This document shows positions 44,694 through 62,914 of a stretch of DNA of 64,000 bases, one piece after another. Position numbers and translations under genes: made by a program. The stretch comes from Folioceros fuciformis (Eukaryota): the NCBI GenBank assembly GCA_049999805.1, contig JBNGIO010006079.1:130203-194202 (forward strand), in the 5' to 3' direction. Every line of letters starts with the position of its first letter. Within the stretch, counting starts at the first letter, position 1. The notes under the pieces are model-generated. The model was not told the DNA's origin. It did no database searches and saw nothing but the letters and a program-made list of their open reading frames with translations.

Positions 44694-47395
44694 TTAAGGA
44701 CTTCCGTGGTTCGCTTCGGTTACCGTTACTTTGCGCATGCAGCTGATGGTTGAAGAGTTCGGCTGGAGACCTTCCTGCTGCATCTGATCGAACAGCCTGA
44801 AAGCTTCCTCCGGAAATCCTTGCTGTGCATAGGCAGCTATCATGGCATTCCATGAAATTACACTGCGCCGAGGCATGTTTTCGAACTCATGACGAGCATC
44901 CCCGAGTCTGCCACATTTGGCATACATGTCCAGAACTGCTGTGCGGAGGACAACAGTCAGCTCCAAGCCACTTTTCAGCAGTTGAGAGTGCACTTGCCTG
45001 CCTTTGTGTAACGAGGCCATGATAGCACAAGCTTTCAGGGTTGAAGAAAATGTGGCTGCATTCGGTCTGACATTCTCCTGCAACATTTGCTCGAAAAGCT
45101 TGATGGCTTCCTCGCCACGCCCTTGCAATGTGTATCCTGCTATCATTGCAGTCCAAGAGACTACGTCCCGGTTTGGCATTTCATCAAAAACCCGCTTGGC
45201 ACCTTCTACGTGCCTGCACTTTGCGTACATGTCTATCAGAGCGTTTCCTAGAGAAAGGTCGGACGGTAGCTTATTCTGGATTATATCGGCGTGGACTCTC
45301 CTGCCCACTTGTAGAGATCCTGTCTCCGCACAAGCGTTGAGGACACTGGCCAACATTCGTGCATTGGGTTTGATTCTTTCATCTTCCAGTTCCTCGTAGA
45401 GCTGGATGGCTTCCTTTGCTCGACCATGCTCAGCGTAGCCTGAAATCATCGAATACCATGACAGCACATCCCGCTGGACCATGTTATCAAAAACCTGGCG
45501 GGCTTCGTACAAGCTCCCACAGCGTGAGTACATGTACAGAAGAGAGTTACCTATCAGCGGATAGCAATCTAAACCAAGCAGTCTGACGTTGTTGTGGATC
45601 TCCTTGCCAGCTTCCAGCGCTCGTATATCAGCACATGCCTTGAGAACGCTGGCGAAGGTGTCCTCCTCCACGTCAATTCCATCTTGCTTCATCTGTTCAT
45701 AAAGCAGCAAGGCTTCCTTCGCCCGACCATGCTGAACGCTTCCTGATATCATGGCATTCCATGACACTCTATCTTTGTGGGGCATTTCATCGAACACCTT
45801 TTGAGCGTCTTCCATGCTCCCACATTCGGCGTACATATCCATGAGAGCAGTACCAACCATGACATCCGACTGCAATCCAGCAACCTTCACGTGAGAGTGC
45901 ACTTGTCTGCCTTCATCTAGAGCTGAAACACTTCCACAGGCTTTCAAAACACAGGCAAACGTTGTCTTGTCTGGATCAAATTTCTCCTGCTGCATGAGTT
46001 GGTAGAGCCTGATGCCTTCCCACCCAAGCTTGTTCTTCCAACATCCATTTATCATTGCATTCCACGACACCACATCCCGTGTCGGCATGCCTTCAAAGAT
46101 ATGCCGAGCATCCTCCATGCTTCCGCACTTCGCATACATGTCCACCAAGCTGTTCTGCACAGTCAGATCACTGTCCAGTCCCAGCTTGTTCACATCAGTA
46201 TGCACTCGCCTGCCAGTTGCTAATGAAGGGACGCTCCCACAGGCTTTCAAGATGCACACAAAAGTAACATGATTCGGCCGCACCTTCTCCTCTTGCATCT
46301 GCTCGTACAGCTTGATGGCTTCCAAGCCAAGATCACGCGATGCGTATCCTGATATGACAGCAGTCCAAGCCACCACATCCCGTTCGGACATGCTCTCAAA
46401 CGATTCACGAGCCTCACTCATGCTGCCACATTTGGCATACATGTCAACCAAAGCACTCCCTACAAACAAGTTCGATCCCAACCCATGCTCCACTACGTGA
46501 GAGTGAACTCTCCTGCCCTCCACAACGTCCCCTGAACCAGCACATGCCCTCAGCACGTAAACAAAAAGCACAGCATGTGGCTTCACACCCTGCTTCATCA
46601 TCCCATCAAAAAGCTTCAATGCCTCCCGAAAGTTCCCTACATCAACATACCCTCTAATCAACGAGGCCCACGAGTACGTATTCTGCTTGTGCATCTTCCG
46701 GAACACATCCCTGGCCTCTCCCATCCTCCCAGAGCTCGCATACAGCCTGACCAGGTTCCCCCCAAGATACAGGTCCGACTCCCACCCACACCTAACAATA
46801 TGCTGATGCACCTGTCTCCCTTCTGTCCATGCATCCTTCTCAATGCAAGTCTGAAGCAGGGCGGCGTAATTCTGCTTGCTTTCGAGAACATTACCGTCCT
46901 GCTTGAACTCCACCCACAATGCCTCCCGAGCAATCAGGTTATCTGCAAGCCCTCAAAAACTCAAGTTTGGAACCTCCGCGAACGCAAGACACCATAAACC
47001 TCATGTTTAGGACCTCCACACATGCAAGCCATGAAGCTGTGGACACTGTGTGACCATGCCACGCACTTACCAACATAGGTCTGAGCTTTTCCGGCTCCTG
47101 TTGAGCCCCGCAAGTTGGAGAGAGGTGCATAACATGGTCTCCTAAGAGTCCGGGGACTGCATTGAGTTTGCCTTCGCCATTCCAACAACAGTTGCCTCGC
47201 GAAAGGCCGATTATTCCTCATTCCCTTGTCCTTCCCTCCACCTTCCGTGCAGCAATCTGCGAATCCAGCCAACACTGGGCATCTGCTCCGCTTCGATTCC
47301 TGGCGACACACCAACGCAACTGCTGATTCTCGGCTCCCAGGACTCAGAGCCCTTTCATCACATATTACACTTGACATCTTCAGCTTCCGGACCAT
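44694..47395 (-). CDS. PLS-class PPR protein lacking E/DYW extension, 2 exons
   Basis: Long P-L-S array 44694-46919; in-frame splice G|GTAAGT (~47071) to TGCAG|AT (~46942) links ORF 46961-47395 as N-terminal exon. Confidence 0.85.
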
Positions 47396-47786: not shown

Positions 47787-49576
47787 ATGGAAACCGCGGG
47801 AGTCAAGCGACAGCAACGAAGTGGCCACAAGAGGCGGAGAATTGATGTGAAGATGGAGTACGTGCAGCCGTCAGGCGCGCGTGTCGGGCCGTTTGTTGGC
47901 TACTTCCCGACGGGATTCGATCCAACTGCGCCGACCTATGCCGACGTGGGAGGAGAAGAAGTGCCTCCGTTGACAGAATTGGTTGCTTTTCAGAATAGCC
48001 AGAAGTTCAAGCAGCGGCAGCATCAGGTGGTTGCCAGGGCGAATGGTAGTGTAGATTTTGTTGGGACGAACTACACTGGTGAAGCTGCTGCGTGGCATCC
48101 CTGCAGCTATGCATTGGGGGTGTTCAACAAGGATGAGGGGACGCTGAAGCTGGTGCCCATTGCTGGAGAAAAGGTTTGCTTTGTGTTTCTGCTTCGTTCA
48201 GGCGGTGCATGCGTGAGGGTGTAGGGGATAGGAATCTGGACATACGTTCTGGGATGTGCAAAGTAATGGCCAGAGGTTCGGGTGCTGGTGGGAAGTCTAT
48301 CTGATTGCTTCTTGCATTAGGTTTTCAAAATGGAGCCAAGAGTGAAAGGCGTGCGCTATGGGCATGACGAATCCGATGAAGTGAACGAGGCAGAGCTGTC
48401 CCCCGAGAAGAGGAGGCTTCAGATGGAAAGGTTGACGCACACACTTGGCAGTCAGCGTTCAAAATTAAAGGTCTGTGCATCCGGTCTGACTTCTTCCGTC
48501 TGTAGAGAGCTGGGATTTTGGTTCACTGTCGATGGTCCTGTGGTTGATATCTGACATGGGGAGCTCTTTCGACCTCGTGGTTAGCAGACTGAACGACGTG
48601 CCAGGGGCTTGATAAAGGAGTCGGCTTTAGGAGAGCTTGCAGCGGAAATGGAGGACGTTATTCACTCGGCTGGACTGAATGCCGAGCTGGTCACCAGGGA
48701 GGAAGCATTGGCAAAGGCAAATGCGGAGATAGTTAGGAACATCCCACCTCGTAACCTTGCGGCTACATCCGTTGTGAATGCGTATCCTGTCGATGAGATC
48801 ATCTCTCGCGCGGAATGGGATAGTCTGGAAACCAAAGAATTGAAGAAGGCTGCTGCAAAGCCTGCCAAAGAAGAAGAATTGCGGAGGCATAACGACTATC
48901 CAAATTTTGTGCTCAACCGGCTCCGCCGTCTTCGCGTGGAGGTATGTGTCCATTCGCTCATGCTTTCATTAATACAACTTTGTTCTGTTTGTGTCGGGAG
49001 GGGTTTGGATGTGTGTCGGTCCCACAAGTTCACATCGTTAAAGCTTTTGTATCTGGGCATGCAGGGGGATGTTGAAGGTAACGACAGACGAGCTCACCTT
49101 TTGGTGTNNNNNNNNNNNNNNNNNNNNNNNNNNNNNNNNNNNNNNNNNNNNNNNNNNNNNNNNNNNNNNNNNNNNNNNNNNNNNNNNNNNNNNNNNNNNN
49201 NNNNNNNCGGATTCCCAGTGTGGTTGTAGCAAAGTTCTTCAAGCTCTTCACGGACACTGATGCCGTTAAGGGTGGCAGTACTCAGTCCAAGGAGCAAAGG
49301 AATCTGCTGATCAGTTACATCCTTGTTCTTGGGTTAACCGTGGATGACTTTGTCGCAGATCCACATGATCTGGCTGTTGAACTCAAAATGACCGTGAACC
49401 AGGTGAAGCCTTACTATGTGGAGTTGGGTTGTAAGATGGAACAACAGAAGGGAATTGATAGGTCAGCTGCATCTGTCGACCCTCATTCAGGACGAGGGAA
49501 GTTCAGGGTGACTTTGCCTATCCCGCTGAAATTCCCTTTGCTGAACCCAAAGTTCAAGAGAGGCAGGGGGAGGTAG
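47787..49576 (+). CDS. RPA49: RNA polymerase I subunit RPA49/PAF53-like, multi-exon, contains assembly gap
   Basis: 'GPFVGYFPTGFDP', 'VDFVGTNYTGEAA...YALGVFNK..GTLKLVPI', 'LTHTLGSQRSK', 'RNIPPRN..A......AYP', 'LLISYILVLGL.VDDF.....DLA.ELKM......YYVELGCK'. Confidence 0.85.
49108..49207. other. Assembly gap (100 N)
   Basis: Run of N. Confidence 1.
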
Positions 49577-50424: not shown

Positions 50425-50524
50425 NNNNNNNNNNNNNNNNNNNNNNNNNNNNNNNNNNNNNNNNNNNNNNNNNNNNNNNNNNNNNNNNNNNNNNNNNNNN
50501 NNNNNNNNNNNNNNNNNNNNNNNN
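50425..50524. other. Assembly gap (100 N)
   Basis: Run of N. Confidence 1.
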
Positions 50525-50976
50525 GTCCGTCGTCTGATTCTTGCTTGCCTTCTCAAGGCCCCGGTGTCTTACATTATGGCATGCATGTGCACTCAGATCC
50601 ATGCTTCCCCGACCGTTTAGTACGAGACCTTGTGGAGTAAGTAGAGGATTCCGATTCCCTCTATGACAATCCATGGCTGATTGTTTTTGACATGTTGGGT
50701 GGCTCTTGTTGGGTGAGATGTCTGATCTGACCCTTGTAGTCAGACTTCTCGCCGCGAGATCCTCCTTATTCCTCCTCGCTCCTCTCGATCAACCTTTACC
50801 GGGAAGGCCTCATCGGTTATGGGATTCAACAGGTTACGAGCTCCATACCATCTCTTTCCAACAACACTCCGTCGTGGCTTCACCTGTTAAGACTCCAACA
50901 TAGAGCTACCCTTAACATTTCTGGTCATCGGAACGCAAGAGTCCTCAGTAAGCAGCGGCAGGGACGTCACTACACA

Positions 50977-53900
50977 TTGCATTCTGTTTTCCCTGGGTAT
51001 GACGCAGACCATGGGTGGCCGCTTATCTTGAAGTGCAGCCTGGAGTGTGCTAGCGGGGCTTCACATTGGATTATGGGGAGTACGAAAAATGTTGTTGGGT
51101 CCATCAGCGCTGGCAGAGGGAGCGTTCTCAGTGATTCACATCAACTAGGGGCGGATACTTGGGCTGTGCTAATCTCAGGGTTTGCCAATTCCGGGCAAGC
51201 TAGACAGGCTCTGGAAATCTACGAGGAAATGCGGCAAGATGGAGTTGAGGCAAAGCCACATACCCTTGTGGATTTGTTGAAGGCTTGCACTTGCTTGTTG
51301 GACTTGAAACGTGCCAAGCGGATTCACGCAGACGTGGTAAGAAGTGGTCTCGAGACAGATTTGTATGTGGGCACGATGCTTGTAAATACTTACGCGAAAT
51401 GTGGAAGCGTGGAGAACGCTAGGCGGGTGTTTGAGGAAATGCCCCATCGAGATGTGGTATCCTGGAATGCCATGATAACGGGGTATTCCCAGATGGGCAA
51501 GGGTGAAGAGGCTTTGAACCTGTATACAAGGATGCAACAGGAGGGTGTGGTCCCCACTGACAGAACATATGTCGGGGCACTAAAGGCTTGCAGTAGCATA
51601 GTAGAATCGAGGGAGGAAAACGGTGGTGATCTGACGCTTGTTAGAGAACGATGCCTGGATACTGTGAGGGCAATTCATGGTGCGGTCCAAAAGGGTAGGT
51701 ATGAGTCGAATGTGTTTGTGGGAAACATGCTAGTGGATGCGTATTGCAAATGTGGGAGCCTTGAGGATGCTGAACGGGTGTTTGAAGGAATGCCTGCTCA
51801 TTCTGTCGTTTCCTGGACTGCCTTGATGTTTGGGTATGCCCAGACGGAACAAGGTGAAGAGGCTTTGAAACTGTATAGGCGGATGAGAGAGGAAGGTGTG
51901 GTTCCCGACGACCGAGCATATGTCAGCGCACTCAAGGCTTGCAGTAGCATTGCCGAATTGTGGGAAAGCAATGGCAATGATGGACTATCGAGAAGGCAAC
52001 ACCTAGAAACTGTCAGATCCATTCACTCTGATATTCGCAGGGGAAAGTTAGAGCTGGATGTGTTTGTGGGAAACATGCTAGTTGATGCGTATGCAAAGTG
52101 TGGGAGCTTGCAAGATGCAAGGCAGGTGTTTGAGAAAATGCCACATCGTGACGTAGTTTCTTGGAACGCTCTGATCTTGGGGTACTCCCAAGCAGACGAG
52201 GCTGAGAAGGCTGAGGAGGCCTTGCAGTTGTACACACGCATGCGACAAGAAGGTGCCAGTCCTAACAACCGGACGTACGTTGGTGCACTGAAAGCTTGCA
52301 TTGTCATCGGAGGATCAGGAAATGGGATTGTTAAAGAAAAATGCATGGAAACTGTGACAGCAATACACGCAGACCTTGGCAATGAGAAGAGTGATTTAGA
52401 CAAGTTCGTAGGGGCAATGCTGGTGGATGCATATGCGAAATGTGGGAGTCTGGCCAATGCCAGGTTGGTATTTGATAAAATTCCTCATCGTGATGTAGTG
52501 GTGTGGACCGCCATGATTTTGGGATGTGCACAGATGGAGAAGGGGGAAGAGGCTTTACAGCTCTTTAATCAGATGCAAAAGGAAGCCGTGATCCCAAACG
52601 AGCGAACATATCTTGGTGCACTCATGGCTTGCAGTAGCATTGCAGAACGTGAGAACACAGAAGGCAATGCTGAAACACTCCTTAAACAAAATTGTTTTAG
52701 AACAGTGAAAGCCATCCACACAGATGTTGAGAGGGCCGGGCTTGAGTCGAACCGGTTCTTGGGGAACATGCTAGTGGATGCTTACTCCAAATGTGGGAGT
52801 CTGCAGGATGCTAGACGAGTTTTTGAAAGCATGCCTCAACGTGACGTGGTTTCATGGAATTCCATGATCATCGGCTGTGCCCAGATGGAGAAGGGTGACG
52901 AGGCTTTGCAGTTGTTTGCAAAAATGAAACAGGAGGGCGTCGTCCCAAACGACCGAACATACGTAGGTGCCCTCAACGCCTGCGGTAGTGTGGCCGCTCT
53001 GGAGAAAGGGAAGGAAATTCATGCCCAGATTTTAAACGCTGGCTTGGACGCTGGCTCCTTCATGTGTAACAGTTTGATAGATATGTATGGCAAATGCTCG
53101 AGCATGGAGGTTGCCCGGCAGTTGTTTGAACTGATGCTCGTCAAAGATATCGTGGCGTGGAATTCCTTGATAGGTGGGTATGCCAGACAGGGGGAAAGTG
53201 AAGCTGTCTTCGAGCTGTTTGACAGGATGAGGCAGGAGGGTGTACAGCCCAACGAGATCACGTTTGTGGGTGTCCTCATTGTATGCAGTCATGTGGGTCT
53301 GGTGGACAGAGGACAGCAGTACTTCGAGGCTATGAGCAAGGAATTCGGCCTCACTCCTACTATCCAACACTACAACTGTATGGTGGATCTGCTCGGCCGT
53401 GCAGGCCAGGTATGCAAGGCCATGGAGACTGTGATGACGATGCCCGTCCAGTGTGACAGTGCAGTCTGGAAATGTGTCCTTGGGGCATGTCAAAAATGGG
53501 CAAACGTGGAGCTTGGAAGGCAGGCATTCGAATATGCTACCAGGTTGAATGCAAGTGATGCTGCACCCTATCTTCTAATGTCAAACATCTATGCTGCAGC
53601 TCACATGCCGGAGGAGGCAAGGAAGGTGCGGGCCATGCGAGTGAACTCACAAGCAAGGAAGGAACCAGGACGCAGTTGGTGGATGGATATGTGCGGAAAT
53701 GCCCACGTGTTCGTAGTCGGGGATCAAATCTCTCCAAACCAACCTAAACCTGTATGCCCAATTGGTACAACTTCTGTAGAGAATGAACAAGAACACATAC
53801 CAGTCGGGAAATTCTCTCTGTGTTGTAGGAGAAGAAGAAGCAGAGTGACATACTTGCATTGTCATATTCGTTCAATCACGGACTTATCTCTTAGTAAAGG

Positions 53901-54075
53901 AGGAATTCCTTATTCTCGACTACCCGTCCGCTACCTATGTTCTGGGATCCCAAACGTGTTTCATTCTTTCTCCGTCGGTCCTTGTCATAGGTGTGTGCCT
54001 GGATTCCTATTCCTACGCAAGCAATCAGTAGGCCTTGAGATTCGCTTAACTCCGACCAATTCGATTGGTCCTTGA
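50977..54075 (+). CDS. PLS-class PPR protein with E1/E2 and PG box, frameshifted tail
   Basis: Paralog of 22199-24859; 'KEPGRSWWMDMCGNAHVFVVGDQ' followed by non-homologous tail; first ATG at 51073 (MGSTK), true start uncertain. Confidence 0.9.
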   Translation: MHSVFPGYDADHGWPLILKCSLECASGASHWIMGSTKNVVGSISAGRGSVLSDSHQLGADTWAVLISGFANSGQARQALEIYEEMRQDGVEAKPHTLVDLLKACTCLLDLKRAKRIHADVVRSGLETDLYVGTMLVNTYAKCGSVENARRVFEEMPHRDVVSWNAMITGYSQMGKGEEALNLYTRMQQEGVVPTDRTYVGALKACSSIVESREENGGDLTLVRERCLDTVRAIHGAVQKGRYESNVFVGNMLVDAYCKCGSLEDAERVFEGMPAHSVVSWTALMFGYAQTEQGEEALKLYRRMREEGVVPDDRAYVSALKACSSIAELWESNGNDGLSRRQHLETVRSIHSDIRRGKLELDVFVGNMLVDAYAKCGSLQDARQVFEKMPHRDVVSWNALILGYSQADEAEKAEEALQLYTRMRQEGASPNNRTYVGALKACIVIGGSGNGIVKEKCMETVTAIHADLGNEKSDLDKFVGAMLVDAYAKCGSLANARLVFDKIPHRDVVVWTAMILGCAQMEKGEEALQLFNQMQKEAVIPNERTYLGALMACSSIAERENTEGNAETLLKQNCFRTVKAIHTDVERAGLESNRFLGNMLVDAYSKCGSLQDARRVFESMPQRDVVSWNSMIIGCAQMEKGDEALQLFAKMKQEGVVPNDRTYVGALNACGSVAALEKGKEIHAQILNAGLDAGSFMCNSLIDMYGKCSSMEVARQLFELMLVKDIVAWNSLIGGYARQGESEAVFELFDRMRQEGVQPNEITFVGVLIVCSHVGLVDRGQQYFEAMSKEFGLTPTIQHYNCMVDLLGRAGQVCKAMETVMTMPVQCDSAVWKCVLGACQKWANVELGRQAFEYATRLNASDAAPYLLMSNIYAAAHMPEEARKVRAMRVNSQARKEPGRSWWMDMCGNAHVFVVGDQISPNQPKPVCPIGTTSVENEQEHIPVGKFSLCCRRRRSRVTYLHCHIRSITDLSLSKGGIPYSRLPVRYLCSGIPNVFHSFSVGPCHRCVPGFLFLRKQSVGLEIRLTPTNSIGP

Positions 54076-54711
54076 GACTTGATTCCCCGCCGCCTACCGT
54101 GGTGGTTGGCTTTTGAAGTTCATGAGTTCTGTGATTCTTGAATCTGCCAGCGCGAATCGCCGTGACCCACACCGTCAGTGACGGCCTTATCTTGATGCGA
54201 CGGGAAAACTGTCAAAAGTTGTCAACCTCAGCGATGAAGCCATGTAACATTAGACGACATGATCACGACACCAGAGCGCAGCGAGCCCGTAGCCGAGATT
54301 TGTTGGATTGTAGCCGTGGTAATCACGAGAGTAGCGTGCACACCTAGAGGCTCTGTTGTACGCACTGGAGCAACTCATTGCACCACCACAGCAGTTGGTG
54401 ATGGATGACGACTGGCTGTTGTGGAGTAGCAGAACGAAGGCAGATGATTCGAGAAGGACCGCATCGCAGCGTCACGTGTAAGCGGGACGCGGGAATAATG
54501 CTGGACTAGTACAAACTTTGTGGTTTCTAGACTGGATTGTGAGGCCAGTGTTAGAGCCCGGCTTGCCCTGTCGGGCGCCAGGATGAACAGGTTCAACGAA
54601 TGCAGGCGGCAGTGACCCGAGATGCAACCAGGCCTGTAAAGCCCTAGTCACAGATGCAACTAGGCTGGGAATGCTGCAACCTCATTGGCCTCGCGGGATT
54701 ACCGTCAGTGC

Positions 54712-54753
54712 ATGAACCTAGCCACGCTGGGATAATGGAAGAAAACGTATATA
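54712..54753 (+). promoter_or_regulatory. LHCB proximal promoter: ATGAACCT (EIL/SLIM1-type consensus AYGWAYCT), GGATAA and TATATA
   Basis: ATGAACCT 54712-54719, G-box-like GCCACG 54721, GGATAA ~54730, TATATA 54748-54753, ~100-140 bp before ATG 54850. Confidence 0.4.
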
Positions 54754-54849
54754 CAGGCGTCCAAGTGTACCCTCCTGCAGCAGCTGACTTGTCTCGTCTT
54801 GCTCACTCCGGGCTACAGCTCCCGCTGTGCATCCAGTAGTGGGACAGCC

Positions 54850-56144
54850 ATGACGGCCATTTCCGCCTCCATCAGCAGCTCCACCTTCGCAGGCCAGTCC
54901 GTGCTCAAGGGCGCCAGCGAGCTTTCCCGGAAGGTTCATGGCGGCAAGGCCGTTGAGTCGAGGATCACCATGAGGAGGACAGCCAGCTCCAAGCCCGACA
55001 GCATCTGGTAGCCCTGTTTACTTGCTCCTCAATTTGCTGCAGCTGTGCACTGTAGTCTTTCGATGCAATGCAATGACCTCTTCATTCATTCTACGAGATA
55101 CTTGCCTCCGCGCAATGGATTCTCCACTTTGATTGCATCCCAACGTTTCCAGCTTCTTGTTTTCCTCCGTGCAGTAGATTTTCCCCTCTTCTTGCTCAGG
55201 TTAAAGGTCTACGTATTCACCGCCTTGACCTTTGCGCAATGGACTCTCTTTTCTATCTACTCTTTCTCTATCTGTTGTGGCGTAGATGCTATCTACAATG
55301 AGCTTATGCCCTTGGCTGCGTTATACTCGCGTTCAAGTGCTTTGCTCCTCCTCAATGAGCTGCGTTTGTTACCCTCTCACCTAGACCATGGGATGCAATC
55401 GTCCAGACCTGTTCGTTCTTGAATGCATCGAGCTAGCCAGCCATGAGACATGCAACGCGATCTAAATCAAGGAACACGGATCTTGCTTGTAGGTACGGCC
55501 CAGACAGGCCCAAATACCTGGGCCCGTTCTCCGGCGAGCCCCCGAGCTATCTGAAGGGAGAATACCCCGGCGACTACGGCTGGGACACAGCCGGTCTGTC
55601 GGCCGACCCCGAGACCTTCGCCCGGAACAGGGAGTTGGAGGTCATCCACTCTCGCTGGGCGCTTTTGGGAACACTAGGAATTGTGACCCCTGAGATTTTG
55701 GCGCTCAACGGGGTGCCGATCCAAGAACCGGTGTGGTTCAAGGCAGGCGCTGTCATCTTCTCCGAGGAGGGGCTGAATTACCTCGGTAACCCGGCTTTGA
55801 TACACGCGCAGAGCATTCTAGCGGTGCTGGCTGCTCAGGTGATTCTCATCGGCGCCGTGGAAGGTTACCGCATTGCAGGTGGTCCCTTGGGCGAGGTGAC
55901 AGACCCTCTCTATCCCGGGGGCGCCTTCGATCCTTTGGGCCTAGCAGACGATCCCGATGTCTTCGCCGAGCTGAAAGTGAAGGAGATCAAGAATGGCAGG
56001 CTGGCACAGTTCTCTGCCTTCGGATTCTTTGTGCAGGCCATTGTAACTGGCAAGGGCCCCATCGAGAACCTGTTGGACCACCTTGCCGACCCCGCCAACA
56101 ACAATGCCTGGGCTTACGCTACCAAGTTCGTGCCGGGGAACTAG
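54850..56144 (+). CDS. LHCB: Major light-harvesting chlorophyll a/b protein of PSII (Lhcb1/2-LHCBM type), 2 exons (54850-55007, 55493-56144)
   Basis: Transit peptide ending 'RITM|RRT', intron splitting the Trp codon before '[13 protein letters not shown]', '[18 protein letters not shown]', '[10 protein letters not shown]', '[13 protein letters not shown]', '[12 protein letters not shown]'. Confidence 0.97.
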
Positions 56145-57051
56145 ACTGTTCCTCCTACACCGTGTTAACTCGATAGAAGCAAGCACGTTCGGAATCACAT
56201 TTGTCCGGACGGAGCGCGTAGTTTAGCGAAATGCCTTTTGTACAGCGTCGCTCCACAATAATGTACACACTGTGAATGTGCTTTGCCTATGAAGTTCTAT
56301 CAACCGCTGTGCAACTTTGTCCCACTGCCGTCCATTGCATATCTCATTCCCGTGGGAAACTGAAAATATGTAATATTTTTTATCCACAAACTTTATAGAC
56401 ATACTTTATTAAAGCTCAATATCATGTCAAAATGACATACCATCATATGTAAATAAACTATATACTATATATGTATATTATACATGATATTATTTTATCA
56501 ATACAAGTAGACGTTCTAGGTTATTTTGCAAGCTCACAATTAAGTTGATCTTGATGTCTCCTTGAGATTACATAATGCATATAGATTGTGAACCTAGCTA
56601 CTTGTGTTGTTACACTTCAAGAAAGGCAAAGGGCAACACCTTTTGAGAGGATATTGCTTAGCTTCCCTACTAAGTGTCTGAAATCGAGCTTCCTTGATCC
56701 AAAATGGAACGTAACCTTGGGGAAGACAAATCGGTGAGCGAAATTCTTAACCAAGCTAATGAAGTGATGTGGGATAAGACTTGCATAGATGCTAGTCATC
56801 AACAACCATGCAACACAATCTGTGAACAAACCATTCGTGGCAAACCACATAGGATTGAAGTTAGCGAACGACAATGGAGTGCAAGTCATGAAGAAGCTAT
56901 AATAGCATGTAGACAACCATGTCTATGGAACTTTATGCACAAATTAGAGATGATCAACTATGGATTGAAGCAAGTAAACAGCCATGGACAGCCTGTGCAA
57001 GGGAACAACCATGGACTAGTGCAAGTGAACAGCAATGGAATGTTGAACAGC

Positions 57052-58485: not shown

Positions 58486-61400
58486 CTATCTTACAAGGTA
58501 AGAGGAGTCAAGGAATCCTATGGCTTCTTTGAATTGCACATGTTTCCCCTTAGGTAGAGCCTTCGTTAAAACATCTGCAGCATTCGAATCTGTAGGGATA
58601 TATTCGAGATGCACCTGTCCAGAAGATACTGCTTCACGAATGAAATGATGGTGCACTTCAATATGTTTTGTCCTCGCATGGAAGACTGGATTTTCAACCA
58701 GAGCCAAGGCACCTATGCTATCACAGTGAATTGTAGTAGGCTGCACCTGCTCTTGACCCAAATTTTTTAGTAGCCTCCGGAGCCATATGGCTTCCTTCGC
58801 TGCTTGTGTAAGAGCATAATACTCTGATTCAGTCGAGGACAACGAAACTGTGGTTTGCTTTTTCGAAGACCAGGTTATGGCACCGCCTGCCAGAAGAAAA
58901 ACATAAGCCGACATTGACTTCCTGGAGTCAGAATTTGCTGCCCAGTCAGCATCACAGTACCCTATCAAAGTAAGTGGCTCTCCTTTATGATGTTGCTTTG
59001 TATAATGAATGCCGTGACTACTTGTACCCTTCAGGTACCGTAGGATCCTTTTAACGGCAGACCAGTGTGTTCTGCCAGGTTGCTTAAGGAACTGTGAAGT
59101 AGTACTAACTGGCAACGCTATGTCTGGTCTCGTGTTATTGGAGCAGAAAATCAGCGAGCCAACGGCCTGTGCATAAGGTACGTCCTGCATTTCCTGTTTT
59201 TCTGAATCAGTCACTGGTGAATGCTCCAGTGTGAGTTTACTACCTGCTTCCATAGGAGTTGCAGCAGGTTTAGCCTCCGTGAGCTTATACTTATGTAGCA
59301 TATCAAAGATGTATTTTTCTTGATGGATAACCAGTGTGCCACTGGACTTATCTCGCAGGAGTTGAGTACCCAAACAGTAAGAGAGTTCCCCAACATCCAC
59401 CATATCAAATCTGCCAGATAAGAGACCTTTAACTCGGTTGATACCTTCAAGATTAGTACCAAGTAGAATACAGTCGTCTACGTACAAAGCTAACACCACA
59501 TAGCCTGTCTCCTGTTGCAGGAAGTACACATTAGAATCTGCATCACTCTTCTTGAAGCCGAGGTCACGTAGAAACTCATCAATGCACTGGTACCAAGCCC
59601 TTGGTGACTGTTTTAGACCGTAGATAGTTTTCAATAGTCTGCAGACCCAGTCCTCACGTCCCTTAGCTTCATAACCTTCTGGCTGCTGCATATAGATCTC
59701 TTCTTCCAGCTTACGATGCAAAAACGCAGTCTTCACATCCATTTGATGGATGAACAAGCTGAAAAATGCAGACATAGCAAACAGGGCACGTAGGGACTGT
59801 GCCTTAACAACGGGGGAGAAAGTGTCATTATAGTCGAGCCCTGGGACTTGAGAGAAACCCCTAGCCACAAGGCGAGCTTTGTACCTCGCTATAGTTCCGT
59901 CAGCCTTATACTTGAGTTTAAACACCCATTTGCTGCTGACAATCTTCCTCCCCTTAGGCGGGGGACAAAGCTCCCAAGTCTGATTGTGGATAAGAGAGTC
60001 ATACTCGGAGGTAATAGCTGCAATCCAATGACAAGAGTCGGGACCTGTGACTGCGTCCTCGTAGGATTGAGGTTCATAGCCAGGTTGGACAGTGACATGG
60101 ACAAATTCTCCCACTATCTCATTCGGGTTCACTCCCACTGCCCGAGGCACTCTCCTAGTACGCCAGTCCTTAGCCTCATAGGGTTGTTCAAGCCATTGGT
60201 CTCGTCCACGATGCACCCTTGCAGACCTTCTAGGCTGAGGAGGCATCACATACTCTACAGGGTCATCAACAACAAGTTCAGAATCATCAGCTGGAGGGGA
60301 TTCAGGCACACCATCGAAGGGATCATCTTCTTCAGCTAAATCTGAAGCAGCAGCAGGTGATCCAGGAGGATCCAGTGGAGGAACAGGGAGAGAATCTGGT
60401 GGGAGAGCAGGAGGAGGGTCTGGTGGGAGAGCACCTAATCTGGAGGATCTGTGACATCAGAAGCATCAAAAACAGGAAAGTCTACAATATCTGTAGGCTC
60501 TGACTCATCTGACTCAGTGTAAACAGGATGTTTAGGAGTGGGATAAGTATCTGCATCTGACAAATCAACAGGGAGATCAGCAGGAGGTGTAAGGACAGAG
60601 CGCTCATCAAACGCCACAGTGCGAGCATGAGACACTTTACGAGAAACTGGATCAAACAGTTTATAACCATGAACTCCAGGTGTGTAGCCGATAAACACAT
60701 GTCTTTTTGACTTGAAAGAAAATTTCTTCCTAAGCTTGTCTGGTATATGTGCATAGGCTATACTACCAAAGACACAAAGGTGGGAAATATAAGGCTTTAC
60801 TCCTGTCCACGCTTCAAAAGGAGTTACATGTGATAAGGAAGAAACAGCTATCCTGTTCTGCAAGTAAGTAGCAACTTGAACAGCCTCTGCCCAGAAACGT
60901 ATAGGTAGCCTCCCCTGAAAAAGTAGAGCCCTGGCAGCATCTTGTATTGTTCGATGTCTACGTTCTTCTATTCCATTCATATCAGAATGATAAGGAATAG
61001 TTAGCTGCCTTGTGATGCCACGTTCCTGACAGAAATCTTGAAAAGCCGAGGATAAGTATTCCTTCGCATTATCAGATCTTAAACTCTTCAGCTTACGCCC
61101 TGTCTGACGTTCAACATATGCCAGGTATCTTTTAAAACTGTCAAACACATCACTTTTATGCTTCAGCAACTCAGTGAATGTAAAGTGAGTTTTATCATCT
61201 TCAAAGAGAACAAAATACTTGGCACCTCCCCAACTTGGTGTGGACATAGGGCCACAAATGTCTGAATGAACCAAGTCTAACACTTCTGTCTGTCTCCGTG
61301 GTTTGCCAGATCCAAAGTGAGATTTAAACTGTTTCCCATGAACACATGCAACACACAACTCCAAATCTGGTAAGTCAGAATCTGTAAAACCTGTAACCAT

Positions 61401-62914
61401 CTTGTCCTTCAACAAACCATCTTGTCCATCATGGCTTTAATGTTTGGATGTCCAAGCCTGCAGTGCCATCTGAAGGCAGCGTATGATTTACTAGATGCAG
61501 ACTCCACTACCTGGGCTGATGATGGTTGGACATCTGAGACAAAATCTAGGATATACAAGTCATACAGGGGAGTACCACGAGCTATGACATCTGAAGGTGA
61601 ATTCAGCCTAGTGATAACATACTCTAAACCTTCAAACAAAATGTTGTACAGACCTGTTTTTCCTAAGGCCATAGTACTAACAAGATTTTTCTTGAGTGCA
61701 GGGACATGGAGTACATTCTCTAACTCCCATGTCTTCCCGTTCTTTAGAGTAACTATCACTGTACCTATACCTCTAATAGGTATATGAGAATTATCTCCTA
61801 GAACAACAGCATGTTGACAAGGTAACTGTCTATAACTTACAAATGACTTCTTAGAAGAGCACATATGATTAGATGCACCACTGTCTAAGAACCACTGATT
61901 TTTGTCCTTTGACACTGAGGACAGACAAGCCACAAGCAAACCAGGTGTTGTAGCTCTTGCCACATTTGATTCATGCTGCTTTCCTTTTCCAGCATCATCT
62001 CTTTGCTTAGCCCTGCAATCTCTAACCCAGTGACCTGGCTTGTGGCAGTAATTGCACACACCAGGCTTCTTCCCGGGCTGCTGTGAGCTGGAGCTGGAAT
62101 CAGGTCGGGATGCTTGTCCCCTGCCCCTTCCAAATCCTCCACGCCCACGCCCCCTTCCTCTGCCGCGACCTCTGCCGCGGCCAGACCAAAGTGCAGTATC
62201 ACTTTGCTTATGGGATGAGCTCGACGAACCCTTGCCAGTCATATGCTTCCTGTTGGCTTCTGCTTGAAGCAGGGCTCCAACTAGCTTTTGTACAGTCAAG
62301 GATGTCGTTGCTGGGGTTGTTGCAGTTGCTGGAGTAACAGTTGCTGTTGCTTGAATACTTGTGCTCCAAGTTTCATAGCTTGGAGGAAGGGCCAACAAGA
62401 ACTGTACAGCTGCTCTACTCTCATCAATGATGACTCCGCATGCTGCAAGTCGTGCTGTTGCTGCCCTGAACTTTGCAACAAAGCTTTCAACTGACTCATT
62501 TTCTTTCATGTGCAAATTTTGCCAGTGGTTGGTGGCGGCTCCCACTGAAATCAAATCCTTTGCTTCATAGGTATCATTCAACAATGTCCAGACTTCATGT
62601 GCATGCTTGGCCATCTTGATATGAGGAATCATTTCTTGTGAAACTGAACCAACAAGAATTGTCTTTGCTTTTCTATCCTTATGACTCCATTCTAACGCAT
62701 CCTTCTGCATCCATAGTACAGGGTTCGTCCCCCCTGGTGTCATCATACCAGAGGGCTGCCCAGCCAACCTTTTTGGAATGGTGCCGTCAGTGACTTCCAT
62801 CAGAAGTCTTTCTTCAAGAATTGTACGAACCCTAAATGACCAAGCATCAAAATTGTGTGGAGTAAGGCGATCCTTCTCCTGTAGGCGATCAGAGGTCTAG
62901 TCTGCTGTCGCCAT
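58486..62914 (-). pseudogene. Copia gag-pol polyprotein with one early stop and two frameshifts
   Basis: CCHC 'CNYCHKPGHWVRDC', protease 'WFLDSGAS', 'WHCRLGH', integrase 'HSDICGP/SDNAKEY', RT 'QMDVKTAFL...YVDD', RNase H 'YCDADWA'; ATG 62914, TAG 62897-62899, frameshifts ~61410 and ~60437. Confidence 0.93.

Follow-up and report, generated by a model that had tools for sequence, protein, structure and literature searches.

A transcribed, sulfur-free Lhcb2-type LHCII gene in the hornwort Folioceros fuciformis: a conserved bryophyte paralog group with a possible role in sulfur economy

The window analysed here, a 64,000-nucleotide stretch of the Folioceros fuciformis genome (contig JBNGIO010006079.1 of assembly GCA_049999805.1), carries a two-exon LHCII gene on its forward strand. 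Exon 1 (54850-55007) runs from the ATG through a chloroplast transit peptide, presumed to be cleaved at RITM/RRT, and the 11-residue mature N-terminus, and its last two bases begin the Trp codon of a WYGPDR motif, as defined by translation of the joined exons, PDB alignment and a contig of sequencing run X1. It is followed by an intron of 485 nt (55008-55492; GT at 55008, AG at 55492), placed by the X1 spliced contig and containing a dispersed repeat at about 55325-55411. Exon 2 (55493-56144) encodes the remainder of the mature LHCII (YGPDRP...FVPGN) and ends with the stop codon TAG at 56142-56144, with evidence from the predicted protein P0001 (216 aa), Pfam, PDB and X1 contigs. The 3′ UTR is drawn at 56145-56269, up to the reach of the cDNA-like contigs (X1 records 7 and 8, free of differences up to their ends at 56237 and 56269), which cannot place the poly(A) site. 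Joined, the exons give a coding sequence of 810 nt in frame and a precursor of 269 aa with no Cys and two Met, namely the initiator and the residue directly before RRT. The mature part from RRT onward has 229 aa with 0 Met and 0 Cys, as an earlier note on this DNA had claimed for an intact reading frame. By tblastn, it is the only LHC copy within the 64-kb window.

Profile and structure searches assign the protein to the LHCII family. P0001 covers profile positions 1-162 of 162 of the chlorophyll a/b-binding domain (PF00504; E = 1.5e-46, 159 bits, cut-off 22.3), and LHCII chains in the PDB match it at E values down to 1e-124, with gap-free alignments to 8c29_G and 5zji_X. Adding 16 converts P0001 positions to those of spinach 1RWT (1rwt_A alignment ranges 1-215 / 17-231). 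In that structure we take the chlorophyll ligands and helix-bridging Glu-Arg pairs to be E65, H68, R70, G78, Q131, E139, R142, E180, N183, R185, Q197 and H212. The corresponding residues of P0001 (E49, H52, R54, G62, Q115, E123, R126, E164, N167, R169, Q181 and H196) are invariant in alignment A1, which bears out the proposal that the chlorophyll-ligand motifs are retained. The Trp codon of WYGPDR, described as a trimerisation motif in PMC8230411, straddles the splice junction of the joined coding sequence.

Exon 1 aligns in the PDB solely to Lhcb2-type precursors, namely 8htu_U, 8j6z_z (protein 2.1) and 9lk4_Y (protein 2.2), which read RVTM RRT; a 15-residue N-terminal stretch was aligned with their RVTMRRTVKSTPQSI. 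The likeness to land-plant Lhcb2 (chlorophyll a-b binding proteins 2.1 and 2.2; in moss, 8htu_U) comprises the PF00504 domain with a core 80-84% identical, WYGPDR, the ligand and ion-pair columns, the R(I/V)TM/RRT transit-peptide end and the 11-residue N-terminus. Type II genes typically have one intron, placed immediately before YGPDR as in this gene. Unlike land-plant Lhcb2, the window protein has all of its mature Met and Cys replaced and a changed lumenal loop and helix C start (IWA to VLA), whereas the five PDB chains compared residue by residue, including 9vfj_2, 8c29_G, 5zji_X and 8htu_U, keep Met and Cys. We apply the label Lhcb2-type in respect of the N-terminus only, because the sulfur-free clade does not group with seed-plant Lhcb2 in our tree. 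This N-terminus is short and basic, with a predicted phosphorylatable Thr3 in RRT behind an Lhcb2-like transit peptide. From its 84% identity to solved LHCII, the mature polypeptide would be expected to bind pigments normally (14 chlorophylls and 4 carotenoids) and to assemble into thylakoid trimers.

The gene is expressed and spliced. In run X1, exact exon contigs reach a word depth of 1019-1669 against 3.7 for the intron, and the spliced joint 55006->55492 (cut +1, GT..AG) is present at depth 1598, whereas it is absent from the DNA runs X2 and X3. The contig at depth 1598 spans 54897-55006 and then crosses the joint, and X1 contigs over 55492-56269 show 0 differences. X1 is treated as cDNA-like because of the spliced joint and the contrast in depth between exons and intron, no run listed being on record as RNA; its contig depths are not usable for ranking expression. 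Among the X1 contigs listed none begins before 54897. Exact-match spliced contigs at high depth occur in an independent 2017 run, and exact matches also in two 2025 DNA runs. The intron stretch 55316-55427 reaches a depth of 149-309 in X2 and X3 over a baseline of 6-10. The same organism holds a second close copy, for which two differences are listed in the mature region, each at the third base of a codon (56114 and 56117), and none at the replaced sulfur sites 188 and 191. Contigs of other LHCII paralogs are present in this organism as well.

Upstream, motif scanning provided leads only. TATATA at 54748-54753 on the forward strand, about 100 nt before the ATG, is a candidate TATA box, and a TEBS-like ATGAACCT lies at 54712; 0.3 TEBS-like matches per kb would be expected in the window, and the upstream 1 kb has this single one. 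The SURE core GAGAC occurs in the same kilobase at chance rate only, and the promoter scan found one G-box, a motif too weak to use. The neighbours are PPR genes, a copia element and an RNA polymerase I A49-like piece, none of them sulfur-related. The copia retrotransposon lies 2.3 kb downstream of the gene, and dispersed repeats are found in the intron and the 3′ flank.

The replaced residues were assessed against the consensus of 47 canonical streptophyte-side LHCII rows. By codon reading and alignment, all on the forward strand, Met is replaced by Leu at site 73 (CTT, 55662-55664), by Ile at site 135 (ATC, 55848-55850), by Gln at site 188 (CAG, 56007-56009) and by Ala at site 191 (GCC, 56016-56018), and Cys by Ile at site 79 (ATT, 55680-55682); each of these columns holds its sulfur residue in 47/47 canonical rows. 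At site 130 (GCT, 55833-55835) the protein has Ala where 47% of the 47 rows have Cys. The earlier note had cited the codons at 55662, 55680, 55848, 56007 and 56016, and all five read as it gave them. Starting from ATG or TGY, sites 73, 79, 135, 188 and 191 need 2, 2, 1, 2 and 3 nucleotide changes on direct reading, so that four of the five replacements do require two or three, as had been argued. Over all columns, 6/6 sulfur positions are changed against 32/210 others (Fisher p = 2e-5), and among columns at least 90% conserved the contrast is 5/5 against 5/154 (p = 3e-7). A count of extra Met and Cys outside the five core columns was discarded as circular, the groups themselves being defined by sulfur count.

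In the alignment, the replaced sites fall in three membrane helices, 73 and 79 with E65/H68, 135 with Q131/E139, and 188 and 191 with E180/N183. A literature search on structural roles of Met73 and Met188 in LHCII gave nothing relevant. Across sulfur-free forms the replacement repertoire is narrow: 73 to L, 79 to I, 135 to L or I, 188 to Q or L, and 191 to A, N, V or T. Some conserved columns without sulfur are also altered in the sulfur-free clade, namely T37K, A76T, Q103V, G108E and D111N (1rwt numbering), D111N in 8/8 relatives compared and G108E, Q103V and A76T in subsets. Since these residues differ from canonical LHCII, the clade may be specialised in some other respect. In addition, a 29-residue stretch of the lumenal loop departs from the canonical form.

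Contrary to what the earlier note had supposed, the sulfur-free state is not peculiar to this lineage. The closest, P0015 of the hornwort Nothoceros aenigmaticus, is 94% identical to the window protein and has 0 sulfur residues; from YGPDR onward, Met and Cys are likewise absent from Calypogeia fissa P0018 and Sphagnum P0025, P0051 and P0052, and among algae from Mesotaenium endlicherianum P0180, Coccomyxa P0092 and P0196, and [Myrmecia] bisecta P0206. Riccia fluitans P0022 retains one Met, and both green lineages display a graded series with 4, 3, 2, 1 and 0 sulfur residues. All of the sulfur-free relatives have the same or similar replacements, and those from hornworts and liverworts belong to the same clade as the window protein. 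The Sphagnum type differs from it in having RLALVANLG and a canonical-like lumenal loop; its cleavage region reads RVQA/RSK, the Met before the cleavage site being gone too. The algal sulfur-free forms differ in bearing chlorophyte or zygnematophyte signatures. Gene models P0020, P0040 and P0046 start inside an intron at the same place as that of the window gene (..CR/YGPDR), and the intron position is common to liverwort-like and Sphagnum-like gene models. In deposited records the sulfur-free relatives are named only 'chlorophyll a-b binding protein', 'unnamed' or 'hypothetical'.

LHCII paralogs are not uniformly depleted in these plants. Against 0 sulfur atoms in the window protein, other paralogs of related species have 4-8: Met plus Cys number 6 in Nothoceros P0171, 8 in Calypogeia P0108, 6 and 5 in Sphagnum P0069 and P0072, and 4 in Riccia fluitans P0168. 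Together with the expression of the gene, this speaks against two of the three outcomes that the earlier note had named as refuting its claim. All Marchantia forms among the matches listed have 6 sulfur residues, which indicates that the trait is not universal in bryophytes. Among vascular-plant cores in the matches listed, 0/96 are sulfur-free and 94/96 keep the sulfur columns, the other two being incomplete alignments; these frequencies are biased, because sulfur-free proteins served as queries in collecting the homologs. The statement that land-plant LHCII normally keeps these Met residues thus stands for vascular plants and fails for bryophytes. Each of the three homolog searches listed 120 matches, and the absence of a species from them (for example Physcomitrium or Anthoceros) is no evidence. 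A profile search with the sulfur-free rows ranked fused tandem LHCII models best and added few clade members.

The clade of hornwort and liverwort forms persists when the sulfur columns are left out (SH-aLRT 91). Twelve bryophyte rows form a weakly supported clade (support 44), and a tree constrained to unite all 23 rows with one sulfur residue or none is not rejected (p-AU 0.166); the suggestion that the trait is convergent is therefore not established. In the tree without sulfur columns, the low-sulfur forms of chlorophytes are placed among other chlorophytes, outside the bryophyte clade. The sulfur-free clade lies within the unresolved backbone, outside the seed-plant Lhcb2-like clade; that clade, separate and starred, unites the seed-plant '151'/Lhcb2-like rows with Riccia 4-sulfur forms and a fern row. 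A first tree, which kept the sulfur columns and was built without chlorophyte context, had placed Coccomyxa and Mesotaenium together with the bryophyte forms (97*). We rejected this grouping because it may have been driven by the columns of the trait itself, and it dissolved once they were dropped. Tentatively, and with somewhat less than even odds, the sulfur-free Lhcb2-type LHCII may have arisen before the split between hornworts and liverworts/mosses, possibly already in streptophyte algae; it would then have persisted alongside canonical LHCII for hundreds of millions of years, serving as a sulfur-economy antenna, and have disappeared from vascular plants.

Elemental sparing via low-sulfur paralogs of abundant proteins is well documented in microbes and Chlamydomonas. 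Calothrix, as Mazel and Marliere are said to have reported in 1989, has a sulfur-starvation phycocyanin set, cpc3, purged of Met and Cys. The present case would resemble cpc3 in that an abundant antenna protein is swapped for a Met/Cys-purged paralog; phycobiliproteins are an unrelated family, encoded there in a prokaryotic operon, and the likeness is one of analogy only. A closer precedent is LHCBM9 of Chlamydomonas reinhardtii, which has 4 sulfur atoms against 6-7 in other LHCBMs and whose overexpression under sulfur deprivation was attributed by the authors to its low sulfur content, according to PMC4344250. In Parachlorella kessleri, the LHCBM9 homolog LHCB1 (1779_t) rose 2050- and 5106-fold under sulfur depletion, according to PMC4724957. 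Both are low-sulfur LHCII isoforms beside retained canonical paralogs, and we adopt LHCBM9 as a working model by analogy. The window protein departs from that strongly sulfur-regulated protein of 4 sulfur atoms in having none. Our full-text literature search found no report of low-sulfur paralog sparing in a land-plant antenna, nor of this sulfur-free LHCII.

Other readings of the same features have to be weighed. Of all side chains, those of Met and Cys are the most prone to oxidation by the singlet oxygen and peroxide that arise beside chlorophyll, and the protein could be an oxidation-resistant or photoprotective antenna, a longer-lived LHCII under desiccation and rewetting, high light or slow turnover, with sulfur saving as a side effect. 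The removed residues do sit next to ligand residues in the three membrane helices, the carriers are bryophytes, a subaerial zygnematophyte and terrestrial or lichen-type trebouxiophytes, and the transcript is at depth in X1 without any known nutrient stress. LHCBM9 has moreover been suggested as a quencher (cited in PMC4344250); however, the same paper reports that reconstituted LHCBM9 was unquenched in solution and that its authors preferred the sulfur explanation. Canonical paralogs with 5-8 Met and Cys also persist in the same kinds of plants, and we consider resistance to oxidation an unlikely primary role.

Alternatively, an old Lhcb2-type duplicate may have been subfunctionalised for another pigment environment, partner or location (for example a lutein/chlorophyll pocket, M188Q), the sulfur loss being incidental. 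The non-sulfur changes common to the clade and the altered lumenal loop are consistent with such a history, and recurrence of the same few replacements could mirror structural constraint. Nevertheless, every sulfur column is lost, the replacements at 188 and 191 vary by lineage while the outcome is always sulfur-free, the graded series recurs in both green lineages, and the Sphagnum forms lose even the Met before the cleavage site. Selection on composition fits these observations better than selection on one pocket, and we judge incidental loss improbable, to about the same degree as resistance to oxidation. That the gene does not work, whether as a decaying duplicate, a contaminant or an artefact of assembly or sequencing, is close to refuted: the copia element and repeats nearby might suggest it, yet the unbroken frame, the canonical splice sites and the full set of ligand columns speak against it, exact matches recur in the 2017 run and in both 2025 DNA runs, and a different hornwort genus has a 94% identical protein.

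We can thus state with high confidence that the locus is a working, expressed, sulfur-free LHCII gene of a conserved bryophyte group. The fuller reading, in which this functional, transcribed nuclear gene encodes an Lhcb2-type major LHCII of a sulfur-free paralog group with a role in sulfur economy, we place at a probability of roughly 0.5. By analogy with LHCBM9, sulfur economy is the most likely role, the sulfur-free LHCII looks like an overlooked low-sulfur antenna type, and sulfur content itself was probably under selection. Few leaf proteins are as abundant as LHCII. As we envisage it, the trimer-forming apoprotein would be drawn from conserved sulfur-free paralogs beside canonical ones (4-8 Met and Cys) in bryophytes, and an antenna built partly or wholly from it would lower the need for reduced sulfur by 5-7 sulfur atoms per monomer, while retaining pigment binding, trimerisation and the phosphorylation site in the N-terminal RRT. 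It counts against this role that X1 already has abundant transcript, whereas LHCBM9 is described as barely detectable in sulfur-replete cells (PMC4724957). Were X1 sulfur-replete material, an LHCBM9-like on/off switch would be unlikely and a constitutive role the better fit.

If the early-origin reading is true, Met and Cys are dispensable for LHCII folding, pigment binding and trimerisation, contrary to the proposal, in PMC4344250, that the two Met retained in mature LHCBM9 are essential, and green algae reached the same end state through a similar, narrow replacement set. The protein would then be a natural counter-example to indispensable Met residues in LHCII. Its tolerated replacements at five invariant positions may be of use for antenna engineering and for separating a structural from a redox role of Met. 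Within the matches listed, there is a clear contrast between bryophyte and vascular-plant LHCII repertoires. Bryophyte nutrient supply is largely atmospheric and from the surface, and a sulfur-free LHCII would offer a direct test of bryophyte sulfur budgeting through the antenna, a very large protein pool.

The forward-strand LHCII gene at 54850-56144 was read from the sequence as two exons, 54850-55007 and 55493-56144 (ending in TAG), separated by a 485-nt GT..AG intron (55008-55492) whose removal is confirmed by a spliced contig and which splits the Trp codon of WYGPDR, a motif present in the protein. Splicing the two coordinate ranges together yields a frame of 810 nt encoding 269 amino acids. 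The exon 2 translation alone (P0001, 216 aa, from YGPDRP) contains the chlorophyll a/b-binding domain in full (PF00504, E = 1.5e-46) and matches solved LHCII chains with E values down to 1e-124, aligning without gaps against 8c29_G and 5zji_X. The exon 1 translation (P0002) has only three PDB matches, 8htu_U, 8j6z_z ('protein 2.1') and 9lk4_Y ('protein 2.2'), all of them Lhcb2-type precursors, and 15 of its residues align with their RVTM RRTVKSTPQSI; by homology, the mature protein therefore probably starts at RRT, with a short, basic, Lhcb2-type N-terminus.

From RRT onward, 0 of 229 residues is Met or Cys, as the earlier note had claimed, and the precursor holds Met only as initiator and directly before RRT. 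The replacement codons that the note cited are all at the positions given there (CTT 55662, ATT 55680, ATC 55848, CAG 56007, GCC 56016), and at a sixth site, where canonical proteins often have Cys, the codon is GCT (55833). Against the consensus of 47 streptophyte-side rows with 5 or more Met+Cys, sulfur columns are changed in 6/6 cases vs 32/210 other columns (p = 2e-5), and among columns at least 90% conserved in 5/5 vs 5/154 (p = 3e-7). The observation stands, far beyond chance. Retention of the chlorophyll-ligand motifs was likewise borne out, since no ligand or ion-pair column varies in the first alignment with relatives (P0001 E49, H52, R54, G62, Q115, E123, R126, E164, N167, R169, Q181 and H196). 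These columns were mapped to 1rwt residues at +16 by alignment ranges, using the ligand list of the spinach structure. Judged by its sequence, the protein appears to keep all that an LHCII needs and to be without sulfur only.

Three public sequencing runs from one organism were compared with 54700-56350. In X1 (2017, 49 million letters, kind guessed as RNA), exon contigs show 0 differences to the window exons at word depths of 1019-1669, which bear on the presence of a transcript and not on its level, as contig depths cannot rank genes; intron depth is only 3.7. A single X1 contig (depth 1598) links 55006 to 55492 (cut +1, GT..AG), and this joint is absent from both DNA-like runs, X2 and X3, where locus depth is about 6-10. 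The splice sites are thereby confirmed, and a processed transcript of the gene is present. The three runs also contain a second, closely similar copy in the same organism (at 54847-55038 and 55863-56152), possibly a paralog or a haplotype. Its exon 1 shows 8-10 differences and its intron differs in content; two differences are listed for the mature part, 56114 and 56117, each on a third codon position (the 56114 variant reaching a depth of 6544 of 8213 in X1), and none is listed at the codons of sites 188 and 191 (1rwt numbering). More distant LHCII paralogs of the organism also partly matched conserved stretches.

P0001 was searched against 5.8 billion proteins, and the best 120 matches of each of three homolog searches were taken. 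Among the best single-domain matches listed are the hornwort Nothoceros aenigmaticus (P0015, EukProt record, 94% identity), the liverwort Calypogeia fissa (P0018, 89%), an unnamed protein (P0020, 88%), Riccia fluitans (P0022, 87%) and Sphagnum (P0025, P0051 and P0052, 84-86%), all of which have the window's replacements in common in the first and a later alignment. Met+Cys was counted over the part aligned to P0001, the core. Among the matches listed in the first search, 12 of 114 cores, including the window's, have none; for the 249 cores listed in all three, samples biased toward queries that are themselves sulfur-free, the counts are 0 in 21, 1 in 2, 2 in 10, 3 in 13, 4 in 14, 5 in 78, 6 in 58, 7 in 43, 8 in 7, 9 in 2 and 10 in 1. 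Zero-sulfur proteins among these matches come from the bryophytes Nothoceros, Calypogeia, Sphagnum jensenii and S. troendelagicum, and from the algae Mesotaenium endlicherianum (P0180), Coccomyxa viridis (P0092), C. subellipsoidea (P0196) and [Myrmecia] bisecta (P0206); Riccia fluitans P0022 carries a single Met. The paralog count proposed in the earlier note gave 6 in Nothoceros P0171 and 8 in Calypogeia P0108, alongside the zero-sulfur forms, with 6 and 5 in Sphagnum P0069 and P0072 and 4 in Riccia fluitans P0168. Among the vascular plant matches listed, 94 of 96 cores (93 named proteins) have at least 5, the two lower ones being incomplete alignments of 141 and 183 residues. Green algae have their own LHCII series with 0 or 2 sulfur residues (P0092, P0196, P0206, and P0202, P0207 and P0244 from Haematococcus, Apatococcus and Symbiochloris). 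Trebouxiophytes reach zero through some bryophyte-type replacements, such as RLAQFSAFG in Coccomyxa viridis, which also retains the 5-sulfur paralogs P0219 and P0225.

Rows with at most 4 sulfur residues form a graded series with few replacements: 73 to L, 79 to I, 135 to L/I, 188 to Q/L and 191 to A/N/V/T. Two-sulfur forms mostly retain M135 and M188, the exceptions (2/8, P0199 and Haematococcus P0202) retaining M188 and Cys at 191; M188 is kept in one single-sulfur form. The Sphagnum forms also lack the Met that precedes the cleavage site (RVQA/RSK), and the initiator is the sole Met left in Sphagnum and trebouxiophyte precursors. The gene models of P0020, P0040 and P0046 start inside an intron ending directly before YGPDR and read ..CR/YGPDR, as does the window's own intron; this intron position is therefore common to hornwort-like, liverwort-like and Sphagnum-like genes.

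Phylogenetic rows were hand-picked to include all labelled low-sulfur rows and canonical representatives; most models that fuse several domains were left out, as were many angiosperm rows nearly identical to others. A first tree, built from 74 of 185 cores with the sulfur columns retained and without chlorophyte context, united 14/14 rows with 0-1 sulfur (97*). In a second tree (103 of 249 cores, 7 Met/Cys columns dropped), the trebouxiophyte sulfur-free proteins moved to the chlorophyte side, the liverwort forms still came out as sister group to the window protein plus Nothoceros (SH-aLRT 91), Sphagnum made up a separate starred clade on a backbone without resolution, and a branch with a support value of just 44 set the 12 bryophyte rows apart from the rest. 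Constraining all 23 sulfur-free or one-sulfur rows together cost 29.9 log-likelihood units and was not rejected (p-AU 0.166). We conclude that the sulfur-free state had one origin common to hornworts and liverworts; the moss and algal forms are compatible both with that same origin and with independent gain.

Within the window, no gene tied to sulfur metabolism lies near the LHCII gene. Its neighbours include two uninterrupted, intronless PPR frames, one of 752 codons (44694-46952, reverse strand) and one of 1111 codons (50740-54075, forward) with the E motif, a type linked with organelle RNA editing factors. An RNA polymerase I A49-like frame (48585-49229, forward, E = 6e-15) is broken by an assembly gap, one of two runs of 100 N (49108-49207 and 50425-50524). 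A Ty1/copia-type LTR retrotransposon (58486-62896, reverse) lies 2.3 kb downstream of the LHCII gene, with gag, integrase and RVT_2 reverse transcriptase domains in three consecutive open frames. Window G+C is 49%, which, together with the two large PPR genes and with the 94-95% identity and sister position of the LHCII to Nothoceros, suggests a hornwort as the source. Two stretches look like dispersed genomic repeats: one in the intron (about 55325-55411) and one in the 3' flank (56166-56347) have X2/X3 word depths of 149-393 vs 6-10 in the rest of the locus, with contigs diverging beyond them.

The nearest functional precedent is LHCBM9, the low-sulfur LHCII isoform of Chlamydomonas, with 4 sulfur atoms vs 6-7 in its paralogs; for Natali and Croce, low sulfur content accounts for its overexpression under sulfur deprivation (PMC4344250). 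For a Parachlorella homolog, 2050- and 5106-fold rises without sulfur are reported (PMC4724957). By analogy with these two, the bryophyte sulfur-free clade may serve sulfur economy, as the earlier note had proposed, a reading to which we give a probability of about one half. The depth that the transcript already reaches in X1 would speak against a strict LHCBM9-like switch if that run came from sulfur-replete material. Promoter motifs upstream of the gene gave no information on sulfur regulation. The sequence ATGAACCT at 54712-54719, 36 nt upstream of TATATA at 54748, matches the EIN3/EIL-type site AYGWAYCT (expected rate 0.3 per kb) and points only weakly to EIL-type regulators of the sulfur response. 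That the clade is instead a subfunctionalised paralog whose sulfur loss was incidental is less likely but credible, and is supported by changes other than those of sulfur residues that its members have in common, both at conserved columns and in the lumenal loop; an oxidation-resistant antenna is about equally credible. Conservation and expression suggest that the sulfur-free forms are functional, and it is very improbable that the gene is a pseudogene or an artefact.

The full-text literature searched (main texts, few subscription journals) does not describe an LHCII free of sulfur or poor in it from bryophytes or from land plants in general, and the relatives' proteins are already deposited under generic names. 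Natali and Croce proposed that the two remaining Met of LHCBM9 may be essential (PMC4344250); if functional, the natural sulfur-free LHCII forms would speak against that proposal.
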